A stretch of DNA of 63,111 bases, filler included, from Sphacelaria rigidula (Eukaryota): the NCBI GenBank assembly GCA_964200075.2. It is 6 parts of 6 records of this genome, joined end to end, with 100 filler letters (N's around TTAATTAATTAA, not from the genome) between each part and the next. Parts side by side here need not be neighbours in the genome. Positions count along the whole stretch, not along the records: positions 10,538 to 20,974 come from CAXNAA020006498.1; 5 more parts are not named here. One strand, 5' to 3'. The stretch's first letter is position 1; the number at the start of each line of letters is the position of its first letter. The translations under genes were made by a program, and so were the position numbers. Below the pieces are notes generated by a model that worked only from the letters and a program-made list of their open reading frames with translations, was not told the origin of the DNA and made no database searches. Shown here in pieces: positions 10,438-52,678 of the stretch.

Positions 10438-10537
10438 NNNNNNNNNNNNNNNNNNNNNNNNNNNNNNNNNNNNNNNNNNNNTTAATTAATTAANNNNNNN
10501 NNNNNNNNNNNNNNNNNNNNNNNNNNNNNNNNNNNNN
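10438..10537. other. Artificial contig linker (44 N + TTAATTAATTAA + 44 N)
   Basis: Exactly 100 bp; the core has stop codons in all six frames; identical copies occur at four other positions. Confidence 0.98.
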
Positions 10538-10792
10538 CAGCTCTCATTGTAGGCTATCATCCAAGCGCAAGATAATCAGTAGGCTTCGGGCCGAACAATC
10601 TTAGCAGGGTGTAGCTCACCCTTCATGCGACACGCCGAACACACCACGGCGCTTCGCGCGCTTCGCGCTTGGTGATTGAGTGCGAGCCTGGTCCGGCGAA
10701 AACCCGGCGTGCTCCATCCCGGCTTTGTAGGGATGCGAGGTCAATGGCCTGCTGACTATGGCATGCGTGATCATGAGCACACACCCTTCCCC
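10538..10792 (+). mobile_element. Poly(C)-associated dispersed repeat (SINE or LINE-3'-end-like), copy A at contig start
   Basis: Shares ctcattgtaggctatcatcca...gcgagcctggtccggcgaaaacccgg...gtagggatgcgaggtcaatgg...atgag(t/c)ac with the other copies. Confidence 0.8.
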
Positions 10793-10867
10793 GTTCCTGC
10801 CCTACCCCTCGTCACGTCTCAAACCGGCCGTACGTACTGCCGGCAATCGCTTTTTCGATACCTGCAG

Positions 10868-13800
10868 TTACAACAGCACGGCCATTACTGTCGCGGACAA
10901 AGATCAGACGTATGATTTCGTCGATGTCCGCGATGTCGTGGTGTTGGATCCAGGCGTGAGATGCCACCCAGATTGCTTCCTTCGTCGCTCCATCGATGCA
11001 CGTCTTCAACGGGGCTGGGAGTTTTCCGTTCAGGTGAAAATTTCGGCGGTCATGGCTGCAAAAAACGATTCTCATTGTTACAGTGGTGTCCTCTGTCTTA
11101 TGACACTGGTGCGGTCACCAGGGCTCGGAGTGCGTGAGTAAATGTCACGATCTGTCATCTAGTTTCTGCGGAATCCGATCGGTCCTTTGACGTTGGCCGC
11201 TCGTTTTTCGTACACCGGATCGGTGGACTACGGTCCATCATATCACGTGCTTGATTTTGCTTTCAGATGTGCAACCTTGTGTGATGATAGCGGCCGGCAT
11301 TCCATTTTTGCTTCTCGAAACGATTAATGCGATATGGTCAGACTCCCGCTGTCTCGTTACGAAATGAGTAGTTTCGAGTGAAAGTGCCTGACATGCTTTA
11401 CTCTTTTGACCAAGCTCCGATGTCACCGTCTCACTTTGCCCCCGGTGCGCGCACACCAAATGTCTCAGTGTGAACGATGCTCGAGTTGGTTTCATGGCAT
11501 TTGTGTCGGATTCTACGAAGAGCAGGCTTTGCCGGACCGCTGGTTCTGCAACGGGTGCGGGGGACAGCCCTATCCAACAAGCATCCCATCAGCTTCGCCG
11601 GCTTCAGCACGGCGGGCGTCCGTGGCGGGTGGGCGCGGCGGTGGCAGAGCATCAGGTCGAGGCAGAGTCAGGGGGCGAGGGCAGCAAACTGGTGGCCAAA
11701 CATCAGAGAGACGAGCTCCGATGCTCCCCCGTCCCCCAATCCCTGGGCGCGGGGACAGTTGCGGCGGTCGAGGCTCGGGGTTGAGCAGCAGCGACGGCGG
11801 TAATGTTGCTGCAACTATGGTCGACGCTGGGCCCGCAAGTGGAGATAGCAGACCGCCAGCAGTCGCTAGTTGTAGCGCCGTTGGTTCCACGGTGGCGAGT
11901 GGTGATGCTGCAGCCGCTGGCGGTGCCTCGGGGCCTTCCAGTATCGTGCGCACGGCTGGCTCCGCTGCGGAGTCTGTGCAACAACATAAATCGACAGCCG
12001 CGCCATTTACTCCTCGACCTGCTTCCGCTCCTCAAACTAGACCGACACCACCGCGATTGCGGATTGTAGTGCCGACGGCAGCACTTGCATCTGCATCGCC
12101 AGGGGTTGGGCAAACAGTCTCACGGGGATCGCCGCCGGCGTCGACACCCCCAGCACCTCCGCAGCTGGTGACGGGAGAGGCGTCACAACCATCACTAACG
12201 TCGGCAACGTCGGCAACGTCGACCATGGTGGCCACGGCAACGATAACAGCCAAGGCGATTTCTCAGCCTTCAGCAATGCCATCGCCGGTGTCACCTATTG
12301 ATGTAAAATCACGCGAAGTCGGCAAAACGAGTCGGGGTAGAGGTGAGATGGGAGTGTAGCTCGAGATGGCAATGCTCCCTGTCATGAGGCGTTGGTTGAG
12401 TTACTCGTCATCCGTGACTTGTTCGCTGAGAGCTCGAGGTTGTCGTCCGGTTGCGTTTGTGACTGTGTGTCATTCTCAGCCTTCTCAATTGAGTTTCGTC
12501 GCGACCAGGCTCTAGTCCAGAGAACACACGAGAGGGTCACGTGCCGAGCGAGCGAGACTGGTTCAGTCGACATGGCAAGAAATATGGGCGTACCGCGGGG
12601 AGGAACAGTGCGTTACACTGTCGTTCCCAGGCCAGGCCAAGAGCGAAGCTGCCTTGTCGTTCGGCTCCGCATGTACCTGCTTCAACACACTCTCACCACC
12701 ATATACACTCTCCGCATTACCCTCTGCCAGGCCGCAGAGGTGGGAAGGGTAGTAGCAGTAGAGGACGCGCCCGCGGCACCGAATCTCCTCGATCGGCGGC
12801 AGTTGATCGTCCTGCGACTGACTCCCCTGCATCGGCGACTGGCGGTGGTCCGACTAACTGCGATGCCCCGAGCGCTGAGCAAGGCAAGTTTTCTGAGTTT
12901 GAAAGCAGCCACCGCAAAACCGACCGGCATTTTCTCACGTGATGCCGTATGTATCATTGATGTGATACTTGTGAATTTCGGCAGTCGTATGTTTGTATAG
13001 GTGTCCTGTTTGTCAAAAGCGGTGTCATGTGCAGGTACCGACGTACGGCCTTTCCTGCAACCTTCTTGAAGCTCTTGTGTCGATTTCGTGCTCACTCCGA
13101 AAAAATATGCGTCCCGTAAACTTTGTCCCATACTTCTTTTGTGTACCTTACGCATTGCAGATGCCCGTCCCCTTGTGCTCCCTGAGACTCCCGCTCCTTC
13201 TATGCTGGACGGATTGAAGGCATTCAACAAGACTGACCTGTGTGATATCTGCGGGTTCGACACGGAGCGGGACAACCTGATCGTGTACTGCGGGTCGTGC
13301 AACATGGGCGTTCACCAGACATGCTACGGTATCTCGGAGGTGATGTCGTTTTCGATCTAGTTATTGTGTAATGATCACCAGTAGTTTTCGGGGGGGGGTG
13401 TACTCATGATAATGCATGCCATAGTCATCAATCAGACCATCGACCTCGCATCCCTACAAAGCCGGGACGGAGCACGTCGGGTTTTCGCCGGACCAGGCTC
13501 GCACTCGAACCACCAAGCGCGAAGCGCCGTGTTGTGCTCGGGGAGTCGCATGAAGGGCGAGATGCATCCTGCTAAGATTGTTCGGCCCGAAACCTACTGA
13601 TTTTCTTGCATTTGGATGATAGCCTACAATGAGTTGCTTTATTTTCTCGTATCGCCACGTCCAGAGAAGACGGGGGAGGGGGGAGGGGTTGTTTAGTGAA
13701 CGCAACGAGCCCTCCATCGTTATACTTACGTCAACCTGTAGGAGAAAGCCACCTAGCTGCCAGACTTTCCGTCAACCGACCATCGAGAGTATACTAAACG

Positions 13801-16800
13801 CGCTCGGACGTTCCGTGTGGTTGATAAGACGCGAGTGAAGCTCGTTCATGAAGCGGCAAGTCAAACTCAGACAATTCCACGTTGGCTGTCATCCAACCGG
13901 AAGTGCTGGCCACTGCCCACGCACTAAGACAAAGTTCTTCGTATCTCATCCTATTTGGTGTCAACCTCTCTGGTAAGAGGCGTGTAGTTCAAGTATATGG
14001 TCGAAGAAAAACGAAGAGGTGGGAAGCAACACACGGTTATGCTTGCTCGTCTTAATCCCCGGCGAAAGTGCTGGTCCCCCGGAATCACCGCGCCACGCAA
14101 GCAGGCCTTGTGCGCCCTTCTTACATCTCCATGGCAATGCATTCCCGTCATGTACTCACAGGTGCCGAGTGGGGAATGGTACTGCAGCCCTTGCTCCGCG
14201 GGGGTGCACCCGTCAACCTTGGTGAGTTGTTGTTCTCGAGCTGACCCAGCAGCACCGAATATTCCCTGCCCATACCCCCCCCCGTTGGCGAATTCAGGAT
14301 CTGACGGCTAGAAGTGGGAGACGTTACAGCTTAACTTGTATTGTCACGCGGCGGATGAGTGCATCCCTTCCACTCGCTCATCAACGTCGGAGTTGACGGT
14401 GGTCCACTCTTTTCTAGAGTACATTTCTCTTGTCAACAGGCAATTGTGCTTCTTCCTCACTCACTTCCCCGAGTCTGACAAGAACGTTTCCAGTCCGGAA
14501 ATTGGATCACTGCACCCACTGATGGTGGGTTTTTGAGCCCAGCTCGTTATACCGCAACCGGTGAGGCCTCACCAGTCCTGCCTTTTTACCTTGTTTACGA
14601 ACACTGATGGCCCAGAGCCCCGTATGGTGATAATCTTTGTTTTTCGACGAGAGTGCGTTCGCTGCGGTGGAGGGGGGTAGAGAGAGGGAAAGGGGACAAC
14701 CTGCGTCTCATTATCCCTGTGAGGGGCGGAGATATCGAATCTGGCCATGTACCTAACCCTTCGAGCAGTAGCCTGATACACAGTGCCAGTGATCTTACTT
14801 GTGGTGTCTCTCGGGCCATGTTATTTCCCTCCTTTTGCCCGGATCCGGCAGTCATGTATGTTCTGTCCCGTCAAGGGGGGTGCTCTGAAGCGGTGCACGG
14901 ATGGTCGGTGGGGGCACATCCTCTGTGCATTCTGGATCCCGGAATGCTGCTTCATTGATCCAAGTGAGATTGCATCAGGGATGCCGTTGGAGGGGAGGGG
15001 ACGGGGTGCATATCACAATGTTGTGGATACTGGAAAAACCCACGATGTAACCAATGTGGGAATCATCCCATAGGAGGGGAAAATCCCACAAGTGTCCGCC
15101 GGAGAATCACCTTTTTACACTGTGGACACCGTGACATGACTCGCACGCTTCATGAACAGAAGGTTCCGGGGCAAAAGAGCCGTAAAAATGGTGGACCACA
15201 CGACTGGTGGACGACTCCGTAGCGGAGTTCAGAGACTCACGGAAAAATCTTGTGAGGAAATTATTGGCTCGGAGACCCAATGCACTTGAAATATATGTGA
15301 AAAATGGTGTACGTCCTCACCGCTAGCCGGTGAAAAAGGTTGCTCCTACAAGCCTTTTTTCGTTGAAAGAACAAAGTAAGCTCATACAAATGGGGGAGGG
15401 TGATACGGGAACCACAACATATGAGGAAAAAAATCCCACAAGTGTCCATGGATGACAACAATACTAGTACCAGCATTAACTGCAGAACGAGACTGGGATT
15501 AAGATCTACGTATGTCGCCCACAAAAGACAAGTAAAAATGAACAGGAAAAAAAAATGAAAGGTTCAGCTCGCAATGACGCCCGCATATGTGTTGGTAGAC
15601 CGATGCATGGAAACCTGGTGCTTTGCAGAAGAGGGTACTGTTTCCATCTCTGCCTATTTCCCGCATCGGACTTGCGAAAAAATGTTCTCGCAGGGAAAAT
15701 GGAGCCAATCGGGAGTATTAACTCACGCGGTCAAGCAGGTGGCGTGCAGCAGTTTTTACCTAGCTTTCGATCTCGAAATTGCTACATTTGTAACACGAAC
15801 GCGGGGTGCGCCATCCGCTGCCACACGTCCGGGTGCAAGTTCCATCTCCACCCCATGTGCGGTAATAAGTCAGGAAATATCTACATGGAGATCGAGGCCA
15901 ACGGAAACGGAAGCGATGGAGTGCAGCTCGTTGCGAGATGTCCCAGGTAAACTCTCTGTGGTAGGTGGAATTTGTAGTGTGTGCATTGTGTCCCAAGTTG
16001 CAAATGGTGGATGTCAACCGGCTCGCGCTCCTCTTCCGACAGAAGGAACACCGTATAAAGTACATACAGTTTCAACCGTCGAAATGTTTCGGAATTGTTT
16101 ATTTTGTATGCAGTTGTCGCTGAAGGCAATTGTGCTTTTTGTTTGGTAGAATCGCTTCCCCCTGTCTAGAAATGTACATAGTTTATAGTCATAAATGGTG
16201 ACTCCTTTAGACTGGGTCTGCAATATGGGGGTGCAGTGCCGCGCACCACACGTGACTCGAAGAGTTCCGTACTTTGCGTTCATGGCGAAATACTGTTCAC
16301 GCTGGAGTATAGAACCCTTCCTCTTTCTGGGAACGAAGTGCGGGCGCAGCGAGTGTACGTTTGTAAAACCTGAGTTCGCTGTTCACCTGTTTCGTGCCAC
16401 CGCACTAAAATAATGTGGACGATGTGGTAAACACGCTGCCCGCGTTCATCATGCCTGGCTTGTTGTTAGAGTCCAAGTATCACCATGGCCGTCGCTGATT
16501 CACCAGTCGGTACATGCTGTCTTGTCAAATATCTCAATCGATACCCACGCCGAACGTGTTACTTTTAGCCCTATCCCTGTTTTTCAAAATCGCTTTTTGT
16601 CTCCCGCTCATCTAGCGCCGCTGCATGTTTCACTGCTGTTCATCTGCGGGGTTCAGGATGAAACATAAGCATGTACCAATGCTCGGATGTATTTTCCCGC
16701 ATCGCCTCCTCTCTCTCGCGGCCCTCCCCTAATCAAATTTCTCGGCCTCACTATGTTGCACCCCTGCCCGCAGGCATCATCGAGCCAAGGGTGGCGTGGC

Positions 16801-19800
16801 TGGACTCAAGACCGTTGCTCGCACCAAGACCACAATTGCGAGAAGCTCTGATCCCTTAGGCATTCATGACATGGTAATCAAGATTTGTGACCCAGCACTG
16901 GATGAAGTCGTGGTGTTACAAGGGAAAGTGACGTGGTTTGACCCGGTACGCTCGATCTACTGCGTCGTAGACTCGAGCGGTGGCCCTGTCGGCAGCGGCG
17001 ACGAGTCCCCTAACAGGGCTGGTGTTACACATTGGATTTCGGCTGATAAACTGGTCGAGGCGAAGGCCATCGCTTTCAACAAGAGGCAACGTAGCAGCTT
17101 CATCGTAAAAATGTTGCCAACCGCTGCAGAGCTGGAAGCGCAGAGGCGTGCGGCGGCCGCCACTGCCGCCGCTCAAGAAGCGGAGCGGGGCGGAGCAGCG
17201 ACTGGTACGGCACAGGAGCGAGACGGGTGCAAGCTTCCAAACGTTGAAGAAGCCGGGGCCGTGAGTGGTCAAAGAGCGAAAAGTGAAGACGTGGGGGGGA
17301 GAGGACAGACGACCAAGGAGAGATTGGGCGACAGAGAAGCTGGTGGCTCGACCAAGGATGGAGTGGGTGAAGACCCCGACGCGACGGAGTCCGAGGGGGA
17401 GGAAGACGAGAATCAGCGATCGTCGAGTAGCCGCGGACGCTCAGGACAAGGCTCCCCGAAGGTGGCGTCGGCGAAAAGTGATACCCGGGAGATGCAGGAG
17501 GTTGCGCCCGCGGGGCAGACTCCCCTACGTCCGCAAGCAGATGAGGCAATCACGAAAGAAGTGACCCCGCAGCCTCAGCTGGAGGTATTGGCTGAGGAGG
17601 ATGCCGAAGCACCCAAGACGCAGGCCGCTGCTGAAGTCGGCGAACAGCGTGATTCTATAACTCAATCAGGAGGTGAAGAAGCCCATGCAAGGTCGAGGCA
17701 ACAGAAAATTGAGCGTGGAACTAACGAAAATGTCACTGTAGCAGCAACCGCAGCGCGGTCATCCCCGCCGTTACGTTCTGTTTTTCTACCGCTGGAGTCG
17801 ACGACAGTGCAAGCGCCTAGATACCCGCTGAGGATGACACGGTCTAGGTCACAGCCAGAGAGCATGGCCCCCTCTGCGAAGAGGCGACGATCGGCGCCCC
17901 ACGAGACGCCGACATTGACACTGGACGGAGTTTCAGCTCCCGTGGCCGGGGCCGACATCATGGCCTCTCATGAGGACGCTGGCATCGCCCAAGAAGCAGT
18001 CCATTCAGCAGAGGCTGCCTCTCCAGCAAAGCGCCCCAAACTCGCCGAGAACGCTGTTGTAACACCAAGCAAGATGGGCAAGCCCGAATCGGAGGTTGAC
18101 GTGGAACAGATAGCAGTAGATGACGGAAACTCCGGAATGGCCGTCGTAGATTCAGGAGGCTCCGCCATTGAGTCGCTGCCAGCGTATGATACAACCCGGG
18201 AAGAGAAGGTGGCGGCGGGGTCAGAACCGGCAGTGGCGGCGCGTGCCCCTCCAACTGGCTGTGAAACTGCAGGGGGAAGCGGCGAGCACTTGCAGCAAAC
18301 CGCCGAGGGCCAAGCAGTAAACGGCGTCCCCCCTCCCGCCTTCACGGTGCAGGCTGGGTGGGCCGGTATAGAAGTGTTTGGTCAGGTCCCTGTGATGCAT
18401 GTGCGCTCGATAAGGTTGCCGGGTACCCAAGCTTCCTCCGCTGCGAGAGGAGATACAAACAATGCAACTTATTTTTCGAGCGCCTTTGCGGGTGTGGGAG
18501 TTACGATGGTCGAGGCGCATTCGTCAGAGCAACTGCGGCGATTCTCCTTTGCATTTGAGCAAGTGGAGAGGAAAAGGAAGAGCAACAAGTGGAATACACG
18601 AGAACCGCGTAATCATGGCGTGCCCGCGGTGCCGGAGTTGGCGGACTCTGTCGAGCCTACCGTCAGCGGATGCAAACGGGAACGACGGATGCCCGAGCAC
18701 TGTGAAGATATGGCGGGCAGCAGGGATAACGGGGAAAGTGGTGTTGCCGAGCATGCCGCGGACGAGCACAAAGGAGGGATAGGAGGAACGGAGGAGAAGC
18801 TACGCAACGGAATACAGATAGCACCCTCAAGTCCACCTGATTCTGGTGCTGGTACGACGAGCTCGAGGGGCGAACTCGAGAATGGCGGGATCGAAATGGT
18901 GTCCGACGGGAAGTCAGACCTCATGTCGCCCCACCCACGCCGAAGAGATTTGGATTCGGCCGTGGCCATCCTCTCGGATGGCGCTGATAGTCTTTCGAAA
19001 GTTGACGATCTCGGTGGTGAACCCAAACAAACTGATGGAAATGTTGACGACCTAGAACGAACAGGCGGTAGCCAGACAACAGAGGACGCGCGAAGGCGAG
19101 GCGCTGCTGTTGCTGCTTCGGGGAGGGGTGTGGAACGACACCATGGGGTCGATAGAGACTTGGATGAGGATAGCATGGAGATATCGTCAATCAGCAGCGA
19201 CGCCGAATCTTCTGAGGCGTCAAACAGGTCAGCTTCCGATATATCCTCCGACGCAGAGGACGACGTCAGTGATCACGATAGTAACAAAGACAGTGGCCCG
19301 CGCGTAGATCGCATATCCACCGACTGGCATAAACGACCGAGTGCCGTTGCCACCTTCGGGTCCTCAAGTGAGAGTAACTGGCGAGAAAACGAGGAAGGGC
19401 AAGGCGCGGTCGTAAGTAACGACTCTCACGCAGAGTCCTCAAGTGAGAGTAACTGGCGAGAAAACGAGGGAGGGCAAGGCGCGGTCATAAGTAATCACGC
19501 AGAGCACCCTCCTCGACCGTCGGACCTCGACGAGCTCGGACCAGACGATACGCTTGACCTGAAAAAAGAAAGCAAAGGTTCGCTCTCGCCAGACGCTAGT
19601 CTGAAATCGGTGGCTGCTGAATCTGCGCATGGCGTGGCAACGAGGGGAGTTGAGGAACCCAACGATATGACCCCATTATCGACAACCTCAGTAGGCATGG
19701 GGACGAGCGTGCCAGAGGTGGAGGGATCCAACGAAGCGGCCTCATCATCAACATCCTCAGCACCGACAGGGACGAGCGTACCGTCGATCGCGGTACCTGT

Positions 19801-20347
19801 GACGACACCCGTTGCGACTCCCCTCGACACGGGGTTTACGAGTAGTGGACCCCCATCCGATCCTCGACGACCTCCTTCCGACCCTCGCAGGGCTCCGTCT
19901 GATCCCCGAAGAGCCCGCAATGATCGCCGTAGATCAGCCGCTGACCCTCGCCGACCCAAGTCCGATCAGGAGCGACCTTCCAAGCAGAACACTACCTCTG
20001 ACCCAGACAACTGCGATGGTCTGAACGGTGCGTGGAAGGACTTATTGTACGGTGTCGAAGACACGGGTAGAGCGACGGCGTTTGCCCACCATGTGAGGCC
20101 ACCGACGCCCCCACCGCCGCGGCCACCCTCGCCCCCGCCGATAGATGAGGCCACGTTAGCGCTGCGCGGGATTGTGCGGGAGCAGGTCGAGAATGTGTTG
20201 CGGTCGGCGAGTCAAGGCAGAGCGGCGAGTCTAGTTGATGATGCGGATATGATGCTTGAGAGGGTTTCTTCGGAAATTGAAGAAGAGTTATTCAACCGAT
20301 TGTTTTACGGGGCTAGCGAACGACGTGAAGGAGAACGAGCATACAAG
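10868..20347 (+). CDS. Large chromatin-reader/transcription protein, partial at both ends: PHD + PZP (PHD-Zn knuckle-ePHD) + Tudor-like + DPR repeats + start of TFIIS central-like domain
   Basis: Exons 10868-11033, 11469-12342, 12731-12883, 13161-13339, 14162-14221, 14852-14963, 15694-15946 and 16774-20347 are phase-consistent (about 1790 codons). PHD: RCHPDC...[17 protein letters not shown]...WFCNGC. PZP: CDICG...[17 protein letters not shown]..|[11 protein letters not shown]..|[30 protein letters not shown]..|CYIC...[18 protein letters not shown]...CPR|HH. Confidence 0.9.
13390..13688 (-). mobile_element. Poly(C)-associated dispersed repeat, copy B (longest internal copy, intronic)
   Basis: Reverse complement of copy A, bounded by G-runs at 13390-13398 and 13672-13688. 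Confidence 0.85.
16774..20347 (+). CDS. 3.57-kb exon of the PHD/PZP gene (Tudor-like segment, long acidic disordered region, SDPRR repeats, TFIIS-M-like helices)
   Basis: Corresponds to the 1212-aa ORF 16796-20434; acceptor cccgcag at 16773, donor AAG|gtaagc at 20347; [16 protein letters not shown]...HWI and [16 protein letters not shown]...AYK motifs. Confidence 0.88.
19361..19504 (+). repeat. Coding tandem duplication (about 75/69 nt)
   Basis: [25 protein letters not shown] followed by [23 protein letters not shown]. Confidence 0.9.
19850..19975 (+). repeat. Coding 21-nt (7-aa) repeat: six xxSDPRR-like heptads
   Basis: [42 protein letters not shown]. Confidence 0.9.
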
Positions 20348-20974
20348 GTAAGCATACTGCTGTGTTTGGGATTGTTCAGGATTGTTACATGTCGTTTTGT
20401 CGTAGTCCATGTCCGGTGCAGCAGAAGCTTGTAGAGGCTTGTGGCGTAAACATAGGCGAACGATCCAACGGCGTTTTGCTCCTTTTACAGCAAGTCGGGT
20501 GTGGAAAAGATCCTCTGCACGGGCATTACAACTGTGGCACCGTGGAAAGAACCTTGGAAGGTATCGAATATGTCCTGAATACGAGCATCAGAGTTGAAAA
20601 CCACCCCCATATCATCAGAATTTCTACGTTGACCCTTTCGGGTCTGGGGCCTACTGACAGCCGAAACGCAGGTGTCTGGATTGATCGTTAATATGGAGAA
20701 TGCCGCATGGATCAAAGTCAACCATGGAGTCGAAACAAGTGCGTGTAGTCCATGTGGCTCAGATACCACGTCGCTGACAGCTTACAGCAGTTCATTTTGT
20801 ATAGGAGTGGAGCACACAACAGAACCACAACGGACCGCACCATACACTATAGTACGGTCGCGCATGTATTTGGCGAGAGATATGCGTACCTGTCACCGAC
20901 TTGAGGACCGACGCCCGGATGGGTAGGGTGACTCGTGTACAGAGTCGAGCTAGGGGACATTGTAGGAGGTTTGG

Positions 20975-21074
20975 NNNNNNNNNNNNNNNNNNNNNNNNNN
21001 NNNNNNNNNNNNNNNNNNTTAATTAATTAANNNNNNNNNNNNNNNNNNNNNNNNNNNNNNNNNNNNNNNNNNNN
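20975..21074. other. Artificial contig linker
   Basis: N44-TTAATTAATTAA-N44. Confidence 0.98.
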
Positions 21075-31509: not shown

Positions 31510-31609
31510 NNNNNNNNNNNNNNNNNNNNNNNNNNNNNNNNNNNNNNNNNNNNTTAATTAATTAANNNNNNNNNNNNNNNNNNNNNNNNNNNNNNNNNNN
31601 NNNNNNNNN
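31510..31609. other. Artificial contig linker
   Basis: N44-TTAATTAATTAA-N44. Confidence 0.98.
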
Positions 31610-42044: not shown

Positions 42045-42144
42045 NNNNNNNNNNNNNNNNNNNNNNNNNNNNNNNNNNNNNNNNNNNNTTAATTAATTAA
42101 NNNNNNNNNNNNNNNNNNNNNNNNNNNNNNNNNNNNNNNNNNNN
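42045..42144. other. Artificial contig linker
   Basis: N44-TTAATTAATTAA-N44. Confidence 0.98.
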
Positions 42145-52578: not shown

Positions 52579-52678
52579 NNNNNNNNNNNNNNNNNNNNNN
52601 NNNNNNNNNNNNNNNNNNNNNNTTAATTAATTAANNNNNNNNNNNNNNNNNNNNNNNNNNNNNNNNNNNNNNNNNNNN
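52579..52678. other. Artificial contig linker
   Basis: N44-TTAATTAATTAA-N44. Confidence 0.98.

Follow-up and report, generated by a model that had tools for sequence, protein, structure and literature searches.

A candidate chromatin-anchored E3 ligase scaffold with a TFIIS-like domain in the brown alga Sphacelaria rigidula

The window analysed here is a 63-kb stretch of DNA from the brown alga Sphacelaria rigidula, and the gene under study fills one of its contigs (positions 10538-20974). An earlier note, made from the sequence alone, had described this gene as a hybrid chromatin reader. We think it reasonably probable that the contig holds the central 1,791 codons of one large gene for a nuclear protein, a lineage-restricted scaffold with RING, PHD, PZP, barrel and TFIIS-like domain (TLD) modules that would be anchored on chromatin, act as an E3 ubiquitin ligase and be able to contact RNA polymerase II (Pol II). 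Eight exons (10868-20347, + strand), defined by spliced RNA-like contigs, join into one open frame of 1,791 codons without a stop. A PHD finger, a PZP module (PHD finger, zinc knuckle, extended PHD finger), a small beta-barrel, a long disordered region and the start of a TLD thus lie on one transcript, as the note had claimed. As predicted from the spliced orthologues, the layout of the whole family is a disordered N-terminus, an RNF4-like RING, a PHD finger resembling those of PHF20, BPTF and PHF2, a basic linker, a BRPF/JADE-type PZP, the barrel, ~900-1,000 disordered residues, a PHF3-like TLD and a short basic tail.

An open frame from the PHD finger to the TLD

Eight public sequencing runs from two studies match the contig, none of them recorded as RNA, and we examined four (X1, X3, X8 and X5). 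The sole reason for taking runs X1, X3 and X8 as transcript-like is that GT..AG joints occur in their contigs and not in the DNA-like run X5. With the cut shifted within its ambiguity, all seven joints in these three runs have GT..AG or GC..AG ends; X5 reads straight through them. The two limits given in the note prove to be an exact acceptor and an exact donor in the spliced contigs: an exon starts at 10868, just after the AG of 10866-10867, and another ends at 20347, directly before a GT donor (X1, X3, X8), at which the spliced frame does end in the AYK that had been noted.

The order of modules follows the exons, all on the + strand. Exon 1 (10868-11033) encodes a conserved linker motif and then the first Cys pair of the PHD finger (from ~10962), and its RNA joint, 11029 to 11465, was shifted to GT..AG ends. 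Exon 2 (11469-12342) continues with the PHD core to ~11558, followed by ~260 residues of low-complexity sequence rich in R, G, S, P and A; the short exon 3 (12731-12883), basic and Gly-rich with an open frame, is bounded by RNA joints 12340 to 12729 and 12881 to 13159. The PZP is spread over the next four exons, with the first part of its PHD1 in exon 4 (13161-13339), the end of PHD1 (..EWYCSPC..) in exon 5 (14162-14221), the zinc knuckle in exon 6 (14852-14963) and the extended PHD2 in exon 7 (15694-15946); exon 5 is defined by RNA joints, and its counterpart in the orthologue P0013 aligns with the PHD1 of BRPF1. Exon 8 (16774-20347), the large exon, contributes 1,191 codons counted from 16775. 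It is covered by RNA contigs at 16771-19389 and 19440-20348 and encodes the barrel, the disordered region and the first two helices of the TLD.

To the zinc-binding modules we can assign known families directly. Pfam scans were made on the exon open reading frames (ORFs), with exon 3 covered only in a wrong frame. The exon 2 ORF matches Pfam PHD (29.3 bits, cut-off 24, E 9.1e-7), which bears out the single PHD finger proposed in the note; in the spliced translation, where exon 1 supplies the first Cys pair, the finger is of the C4HC3 type. Exon 4 matches PHD_2 (33 bits, E 4e-8) and PHD (E 2.2e-6), exon 6 matches zf-HC5HC2H_2 (41.5 bits, E 1.7e-10), and exon 7 matches both zf-HC5HC2H_2 (34.8 bits, E 2e-8) and zf-HC5HC2H (32.7 bits, E 8.8e-8). 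All of these matches, on four exon ORFs, lie above the curated cut-offs. PHD1, zinc knuckle and extended PHD2 occupy consecutive exons in one spliced frame and so form a contiguous PZP module, complete as had been claimed. Its solved relatives are of the BRPF/JADE type: the single PZP exons find BRD1, BRPF1, JADE1/3 and NTO1 first in the PDB (exon 4, BRD1 at 2e-6 and JADE3 at 3.1e-6; exon 7, BRD1 at 4.2e-5 and BRPF1 at 8.2e-5), and residues 397-586 of P0013 align end to end with the BRPF1 PZP (E 4.9e-34), with JADE1/3, NTO1, AF10 and PHF14 as the next matches. PHD and PZP modules bind H3 tails and DNA, and the PDB entries matched by the PZP are H3-fused constructs, consistent with H3-tail binding. 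The solved PHD fingers closest to the orthologue PHD are those of PHF20, BPTF and PHF2, with DIDO1 at E 0.03 (best 60 of 62 PDB matches at E<=0.1).

The PZP is followed by a small barrel at large-exon residues 21-140 (16835-17194, + strand). AlphaFold, given 28 aligned sequences, models six strands and then a helix, with block pLDDT (predicted local distance difference test) values of 74-93 except in one loop. The note had called this segment Tudor-like. A small barrel, Tudor/KOW/SH3-like at the fold level only, is indeed modelled with confidence, but membership of a Tudor family at the sequence level did not stand: Pfam gives no match at E<=10, and a profile search finds nothing relevant among PDB sequences. 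Among 48,161 chains, VIA-align matches the barrel weakly to TraI, Spt5 KOW, the RDM15 Tudor, the UvrD C-terminal domain, CarD, Sds3 and Spindlin (Z 5.2-6.1, all below 8), with the RDM15 Tudor at Z 5.6 (rmsd, root-mean-square deviation, 2.5; 57 aligned). Foldseek matches to the RDM15 Tudor (TM score 0.74, E 0.46) and the PHF1 Tudor (TM score 0.59) are likewise non-significant, at E ~0.3-0.5. When the whole-exon model is used, VIA-align yields nothing at Z>=8, with 37 of the 50 matches listed being of an unspecific two-helix kind, and Foldseek yields nothing at E<=0.001. 'Tudor-like' therefore seems a fair name for the modelled fold class and is unproven as a family. W54, Y62 and W87 are conserved in the barrel region across the relatives, and these residues could form a putative aromatic cage.

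Between the barrel and the TLD, the large exon is mostly disordered, and Pfam assigns no family to any part of its 1,191 codons. Over most of residues 145-1108 (~980 low-confidence residues) the AlphaFold pLDDT is below 50, in agreement with the roughly 1,000 disordered residues described in the note. Among the relatives, conservation peaks over the barrel region, over the C-terminal helices and over a middle block between these two, and four short blocks are conserved within the disordered stretch: RYP.R, the ~60-residue middle block, G.IE..S.G and MEISS. The middle block (18332-18574, + strand; GW.G....GQVPVM.V......YF..A......RFSF.FE..E) has no Pfam match and no PDB match, is not confidently folded (pLDDT <50 except at residue 548) and is unrelated to the barrel (hhalign probability 0.5%). 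The EukProt model P0013 lacks this block, which may reflect a gene-model error or an alternative splice form.

At its end, the large exon encodes two helices (20132-20347, + strand; residues 1125-1145 and 1157-1178) that finish with AYK at the donor and are modelled with block pLDDT 72-90 over residues 1121-1180. We read this segment, by way of its orthologues and of its own next-exon start, as the first half of a TLD. Here the orthologues are ~50% identical to Sphacelaria, and few parts of the large exon are as well conserved as the TLD, the barrel and the middle block. All three spliced orthologues, which come from EukProt, Ectocarpus sp. and Hapterophycus, match Pfam TFIIS_M (PF07500) above its cut-off of 29.2 (P0013 33.2, P0014 36.2 and P0020 35.1 bits), over profile positions 4 or 5 to 90 of 114. 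A five-sequence TLD profile matches the solved TFIIS-like domain of PHF3 (2dme, E 8e-6); the next matches, TCEA2 and yeast TFIIS, are not significant (E 0.24-0.77). Searched alone, the last 85-149 residues of the Sphacelaria exon give five PDB matches, all at E>=1 and none relevant, and nothing usable in the ESM Atlas, and a word-based search with the C-terminal 102 residues finds only P0001, a genomic ORF of a relative.

The exon that follows links the Sphacelaria segment to these orthologues. In the relatives, short ORFs on nine further contigs place a 35-codon exon (AKYKQLLLSLGNVRNYRL) after the large exon, and then a last exon with a conserved basic tail. Nine of the 10 orthologue sequences that cover this next exon begin it with AKYKQLLLS. 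In Sphacelaria, an X3 contig continues for 27 letters beyond 20348 and reads, in frame, AYK and then AKYKQLLLS. Because the start of the Sphacelaria mRNA after the donor equals the start of the orthologue exon, the next exon continues the TFIIS_M domain, as the note had anticipated. The exon itself is not in the 63-kb stretch, where the 27-nucleotide (nt) loose end has 0 matches at <=3 mismatches. Nor are the remaining TLD exons: the family hidden Markov model, run over 2,421 six-frame ORF pieces of the stretch, matched only the large exon, which is itself in the model. A candidate next exon inside 20348-20974 (SGVEKILCTGIT) was dropped, as the RNA loose end reads differently.

Relatives, gene ends and the surrounding stretch

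A full HMMER scan with the large exon against 1.84 billion representatives (E<=0.001) returned 18 proteins, 17 of which are relatives; the other, P0018, is a bacterial RHS-repeat protein (E 8.1e-4) that matched a disordered stretch and was set aside as spurious. Except for P0001, the relatives match the large exon in two or three separate stretches. Most are single-exon ORFs from genomic contigs, and P0013, P0014 and P0020 are spliced gene models. P0001 shares 75% identity with the Sphacelaria protein and the other relatives 21-28% overall, which places Sphacelaria outside the Ectocarpales-like group. A search with P0013 gave 19 matches, 15 of them family members and the other four PZP-only proteins (KDM4B twice, a PHF14-like protein and a liverwort SET/PWWP protein). 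Four family members carry names: g5476.t1 of EukProt, and entries called 'unnamed protein product, partial' from Ectocarpus sp. 8 AP-2014, Ectocarpus sp. 13 AM-2016 and Hapterophycus canaliculatus. These named relatives are stramenopiles, as the note had supposed, and specifically brown algae.

The orthologues extend the architecture at its N-terminal side. In P0013 and P0028 a RING (zf-RING_2 and zf-C3HC4, both above cut-off) lies directly before the exon-1 linker motif and the PHD finger, and the solved RING closest to it is that of RNF4 (E 6.1e-8, again among the best 60 of 62 PDB matches at E<=0.1). Given this orthologue RING, the protein resembles a RING E3 ligase more than a pure reader. 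A 3,628-nt RNA contig of Sphacelaria extends upstream of 10864 by another 2,583 nt, which puts the 5' part of the gene beyond the contig, and we infer that these 2,583 nt would include the Sphacelaria RING. Between the PHD and the PZP, in the part equivalent to exons 11469-12883, the orthologues carry an AT-hook-like RGRPRGS (P0013 ~305-320, P0028 ~1030-1110), and the Sphacelaria exons carry R/G-rich runs (GRGRVRGRG, SRGRARG) without the GRP core.

The orthologues also show how the protein ends. All five that reach the C-terminus (P0013, P0014, P0020, P0034 and P0035) stop ~50 residues past the TLD, in a conserved basic tail. By Pfam, neither SPOC nor the TFIIS zinc ribbon is found in P0013, P0014 or P0020, and the SPOC domain that the note had suggested looking for downstream is thus missing from these orthologues. 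The DIDO/PHF3/Bye1-like layout that had been proposed holds in part: a PHD and a TLD do lie on one transcript, but with no SPOC in the orthologues this is not the PHD-TLD-SPOC layout of those proteins. Enhancer-of-polycomb (EPC)-like, bromo and PWWP domains are likewise not found by Pfam in P0013, P0014, P0020, P0028 or the scanned Sphacelaria exon ORFs, and JmjN and JmjC are not found in the Pfam scans of the orthologues.

The surroundings of the gene are set by the assembly. Contigs of ~10.4 kb have been strung together artificially to make up the 63-kb stretch, with a 100-base linker (N44-TTAATTAATTAA-N44) at each of the five junctions (10438-10537, 20975-21074, 31510-31609, 42045-42144 and 52579-52678). 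Sequence adjoining the contig is therefore unrelated to it, features that cross a linker are not real neighbours, and the gene is cut off at both contig ends. A ~210-nt repeat that looks like a SINE/MITE-like element (short interspersed or miniature inverted-repeat transposable element) is present at 10543-10751, as an inverted copy at 13433-13633 within the PZP intron, and at the contig end from ~20902. Its depth reaches bins of hundreds of thousands to millions in every run examined, as against ~65 for unique sequence in the DNA-like run, and the contig probably breaks where it does because this high-copy repeat sits there. The start of the next intron takes up the remainder of the contig (20348-20974, + strand), with the X3 loose end behind 20348 and the high-copy repeat in its last ~70 bases.

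Several smaller features of the transcript data can be added. The intron at 12884-13160 is GC..AG and has the sole non-GT donor among the seven introns in the RNA contigs. Two low-depth contigs of the RNA runs, 20319-20930 and 14962-15474, are unspliced through intron sequence, a sign of pre-mRNA, of intron retention or of some admixture of DNA. The large exon contains a 75-bp in-frame tandem duplication (19360-19494) whose copies are 97% alike and to which few relatives align. The break between RNA contigs at 19389/19440 coincides with this duplication and occurs in the DNA run too, so it is an assembly effect.

Proposed mechanism and rival readings

From its modules, we predict that the protein is probably a chromatin-reading E3 ligase able to touch Pol II. 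Its PHD and PZP, perhaps together with the barrel, would anchor it to H3 tails and nucleosomal DNA, and the TLD would make a weak contact at the Rpb1 jaw/funnel site that is used by TFIIS, Bye1 and PHF3. The RING would recruit an E2, leading to ubiquitination of chromatin or of Pol II-associated proteins near the transcribing polymerase. Overall, this would be a chromatin-anchored E3 scaffold of the Asr1/PHRF1 type with a different polymerase handle. According to one study, the Bye1 TLD binds the Rpb1 jaw, and competition of PHF3 with TFIIS requires its TLD (PMC8526623). A sharper form of the proposal is rather doubtful: that an E3 of the brown-alga lineage reads H3 tails with its PHD and PZP (and perhaps barrel), competes with TFIIS through a SPOC-less TLD on the jaw/funnel of Pol II, and ubiquitinates arrested Pol II or the nucleosome ahead. 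If this were true, the protein would be a functional analogue of Asr1/PHRF1 built from other modules, and the first RING-TLD or PZP-TLD protein.

A number of points weigh against the reading as a Pol II-contacting E3 scaffold encoded by one gene. All of its mechanistic steps are drawn from domain content. The RING is seen only in the orthologues, and for Sphacelaria it is deduced from these and from the upstream RNA; the absence of SPOC, too, is taken from the orthologues and not from Sphacelaria itself. On its own, the Sphacelaria TLD fragment matches no Pfam family, TFIIS_M included, at E<=10, and the full-domain TLD model (P0020) has a mean pLDDT of 44.6, which does not confirm the fold. 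The joint between exons 2 and 3 has only 27 letters on its short side. In addition, the PHF3 TLD alone does not dock on Pol II but requires SPOC, according to the same text (PMC8526623). Because PHF3 needs SPOC for docking, a SPOC-less protein may bind Pol II weakly or not at all; for any contact with the polymerase it would depend on avidity supplied by chromatin binding.

In two rival readings, Pol II has no part. The protein could be a chromatin-bound RING E3 that works independently of Pol II, for example a histone ligase or a SUMO-targeted ligase, with the TLD and the acidic, Ser-rich motifs serving other contacts. The RNF4-like RING and conserved acidic/Ser motifs such as EEMEISSD would suit such a protein, as would the finding elsewhere that a TLD without SPOC is insufficient for Pol II docking (PMC8526623, accessible text). 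Nevertheless, we consider this fairly unlikely: domains of the TFIIS_M type are otherwise known only from proteins that contact Pol II, as far as the accessible texts of two reviews go (PMC10111866, PMC12139180), and few parts of the large exon are as well conserved as the TLD. A related idea is that the PZP does the work, in a BRPF/JADE-like scaffold of a MYST histone acetyltransferase complex, and that the TLD is a degenerate helical module without a Pol II role. The PZP is indeed closest to BRPF1, JADE and NTO1 (E 4.9e-34 to 3.6e-23), and a long disordered region with conserved short motifs could dock partners. However, the Pfam scans of P0013, P0014, P0020 and P0028 revealed no domain of the enhancer-of-polycomb, bromo or PWWP type, and the RING and TLD, conserved across the family, are foreign to the known acetyltransferase scaffolds; we judge this scaffold improbable.

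Two further readings concern what the contig and its transcripts may hide, and to both we give very little credence. One takes the protein for a Pol II C-terminal domain (CTD) reader of the DIDO/PHF3/Bye1 type, with PHD, TLD and SPOC, that has gained a PZP and whose SPOC lies in the missing exons. A PHD and a TLD are present, the best solved match of the family profile is the PHF3 TLD, and only nine codons of the downstream Sphacelaria exons have been seen; yet a basic tail ~50 residues after the TLD ends every one of the C-terminus-covering orthologues (5 of 5), and Pfam detects no SPOC in the three spliced models. The other divides the locus into two adjacent genes, one RING-PHD and one PZP-TLD, joined by read-through or by assembly of the RNA contigs. 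The 27-letter side of the exon 2 to exon 3 joint leaves room for this, the unspliced frame stops 17 nt past the donor at 12342, and NCBI has P0028 and P0020 as two distinct, partial protein models. Against it, the joint (12342 to 12731) occurs in three runs of two studies (X1, X3 and X8) with GT..AG ends and a preserved frame, RING, PZP and TLD lie within one protein in the EukProt model P0013, and both NCBI models are named 'partial' at source. Our preferred reading remains the single-gene E3 scaffold with a possible polymerase contact.

Comparison with known systems

The note had stated that no described protein was known with this combination. In our literature searches, no paper was found that describes PZP or zf-HC5HC2H together with TFIIS_M, or such a chromatin protein in brown algae, but unnamed and mostly partial models with this architecture already exist in NCBI and EukProt. 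A 2025 review of TFIIS-family architectures does not mention PZP, ePHD, RING, algae or stramenopile in its accessible text, supplements aside (PMC12139180). According to a 2023 SPOC review, every major eukaryotic clade has proteins with TLD and SPOC, most of which also carry a PHD at the N-terminus, and the words Tudor, zinc knuckle and stramenopile do not occur in its accessible text, supplements aside (PMC10111866). A paper on DevPF of Paramecium mentions TFIIS only as a separate protein. The protein thus appears to be a new arrangement of known modules, limited to brown algae and close kin as far as the searched databases show.

Such an arrangement would bring together modules that are usually found in different proteins: acetyltransferase scaffolds have the PZP, Pol II-associated repressors the TLD with SPOC, and Pol II-directed ligases the RING-PHD pair. 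Known domains are reshuffled here and no new principle is involved, and chromatin readers are often fused in a lineage-specific way. Still, brown algae are an independent multicellular lineage in which chromatin biology has received little study, and the protein is a candidate link there between the reading of histones, ubiquitination and the polymerase. It would also lend itself naturally to testing what a TLD is capable of when SPOC is missing.

Each of the known systems shares part of the layout. KDM4A-C resemble the brown-algal family in having a PZP-like module followed by a barrel, which in the family would be Tudor-type, and KDM4B is among the best non-family matches of P0013; in contrast to KDM4A-C, with their double Tudor, the family has no JmjN or JmjC and a single barrel without sequence similarity to Tudor families. 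With BRPF1/2/3, JADE1/2/3 and NTO1 it shares the complete PHD-zinc knuckle-PHD module, but no EPC-like, bromo or PWWP domain was found in it by Pfam, and RING and TLD are foreign to BRPF, JADE and NTO1. PHF3, DIDO1 and Bye1 are alike in pairing a PHD with a TFIIS-like central domain without the TFIIS zinc ribbon, and the PHF3 TLD is the best solved match; unlike them, the brown-algal family lacks SPOC in its orthologues, adds RING, PZP and beta-barrel, and has its TLD at the extreme C-terminus.

The nearest working analogues, judged by module content, appear to be the RING-PHD ligases Asr1 and PHRF1. Asr1 itself has RING and PHD. For the RING-PHD part of the family, the nearest Atlas clusters are RING and PHD proteins (score 0.92, a lead and not an orthology test), and PHRF1 is not among the best 60 of 62 PDB matches of this stretch (E<=0.1). 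As described in the accessible parts of the literature, Asr1 is a CTD-recruited E3 and PHRF1 is a PHD and RING E3 (PMC12270679, PMC7392320, PMC4650548). The brown-algal family would thus be like Asr1 and PHRF1 in its adjacent RING and PHD, in its large and mostly disordered protein and in a separate module for contact with Pol II, which in the family would be the TLD; it differs from them in that their handle on the polymerase is a CTD-binding one instead of a TLD, and in that a PZP is missing from both.

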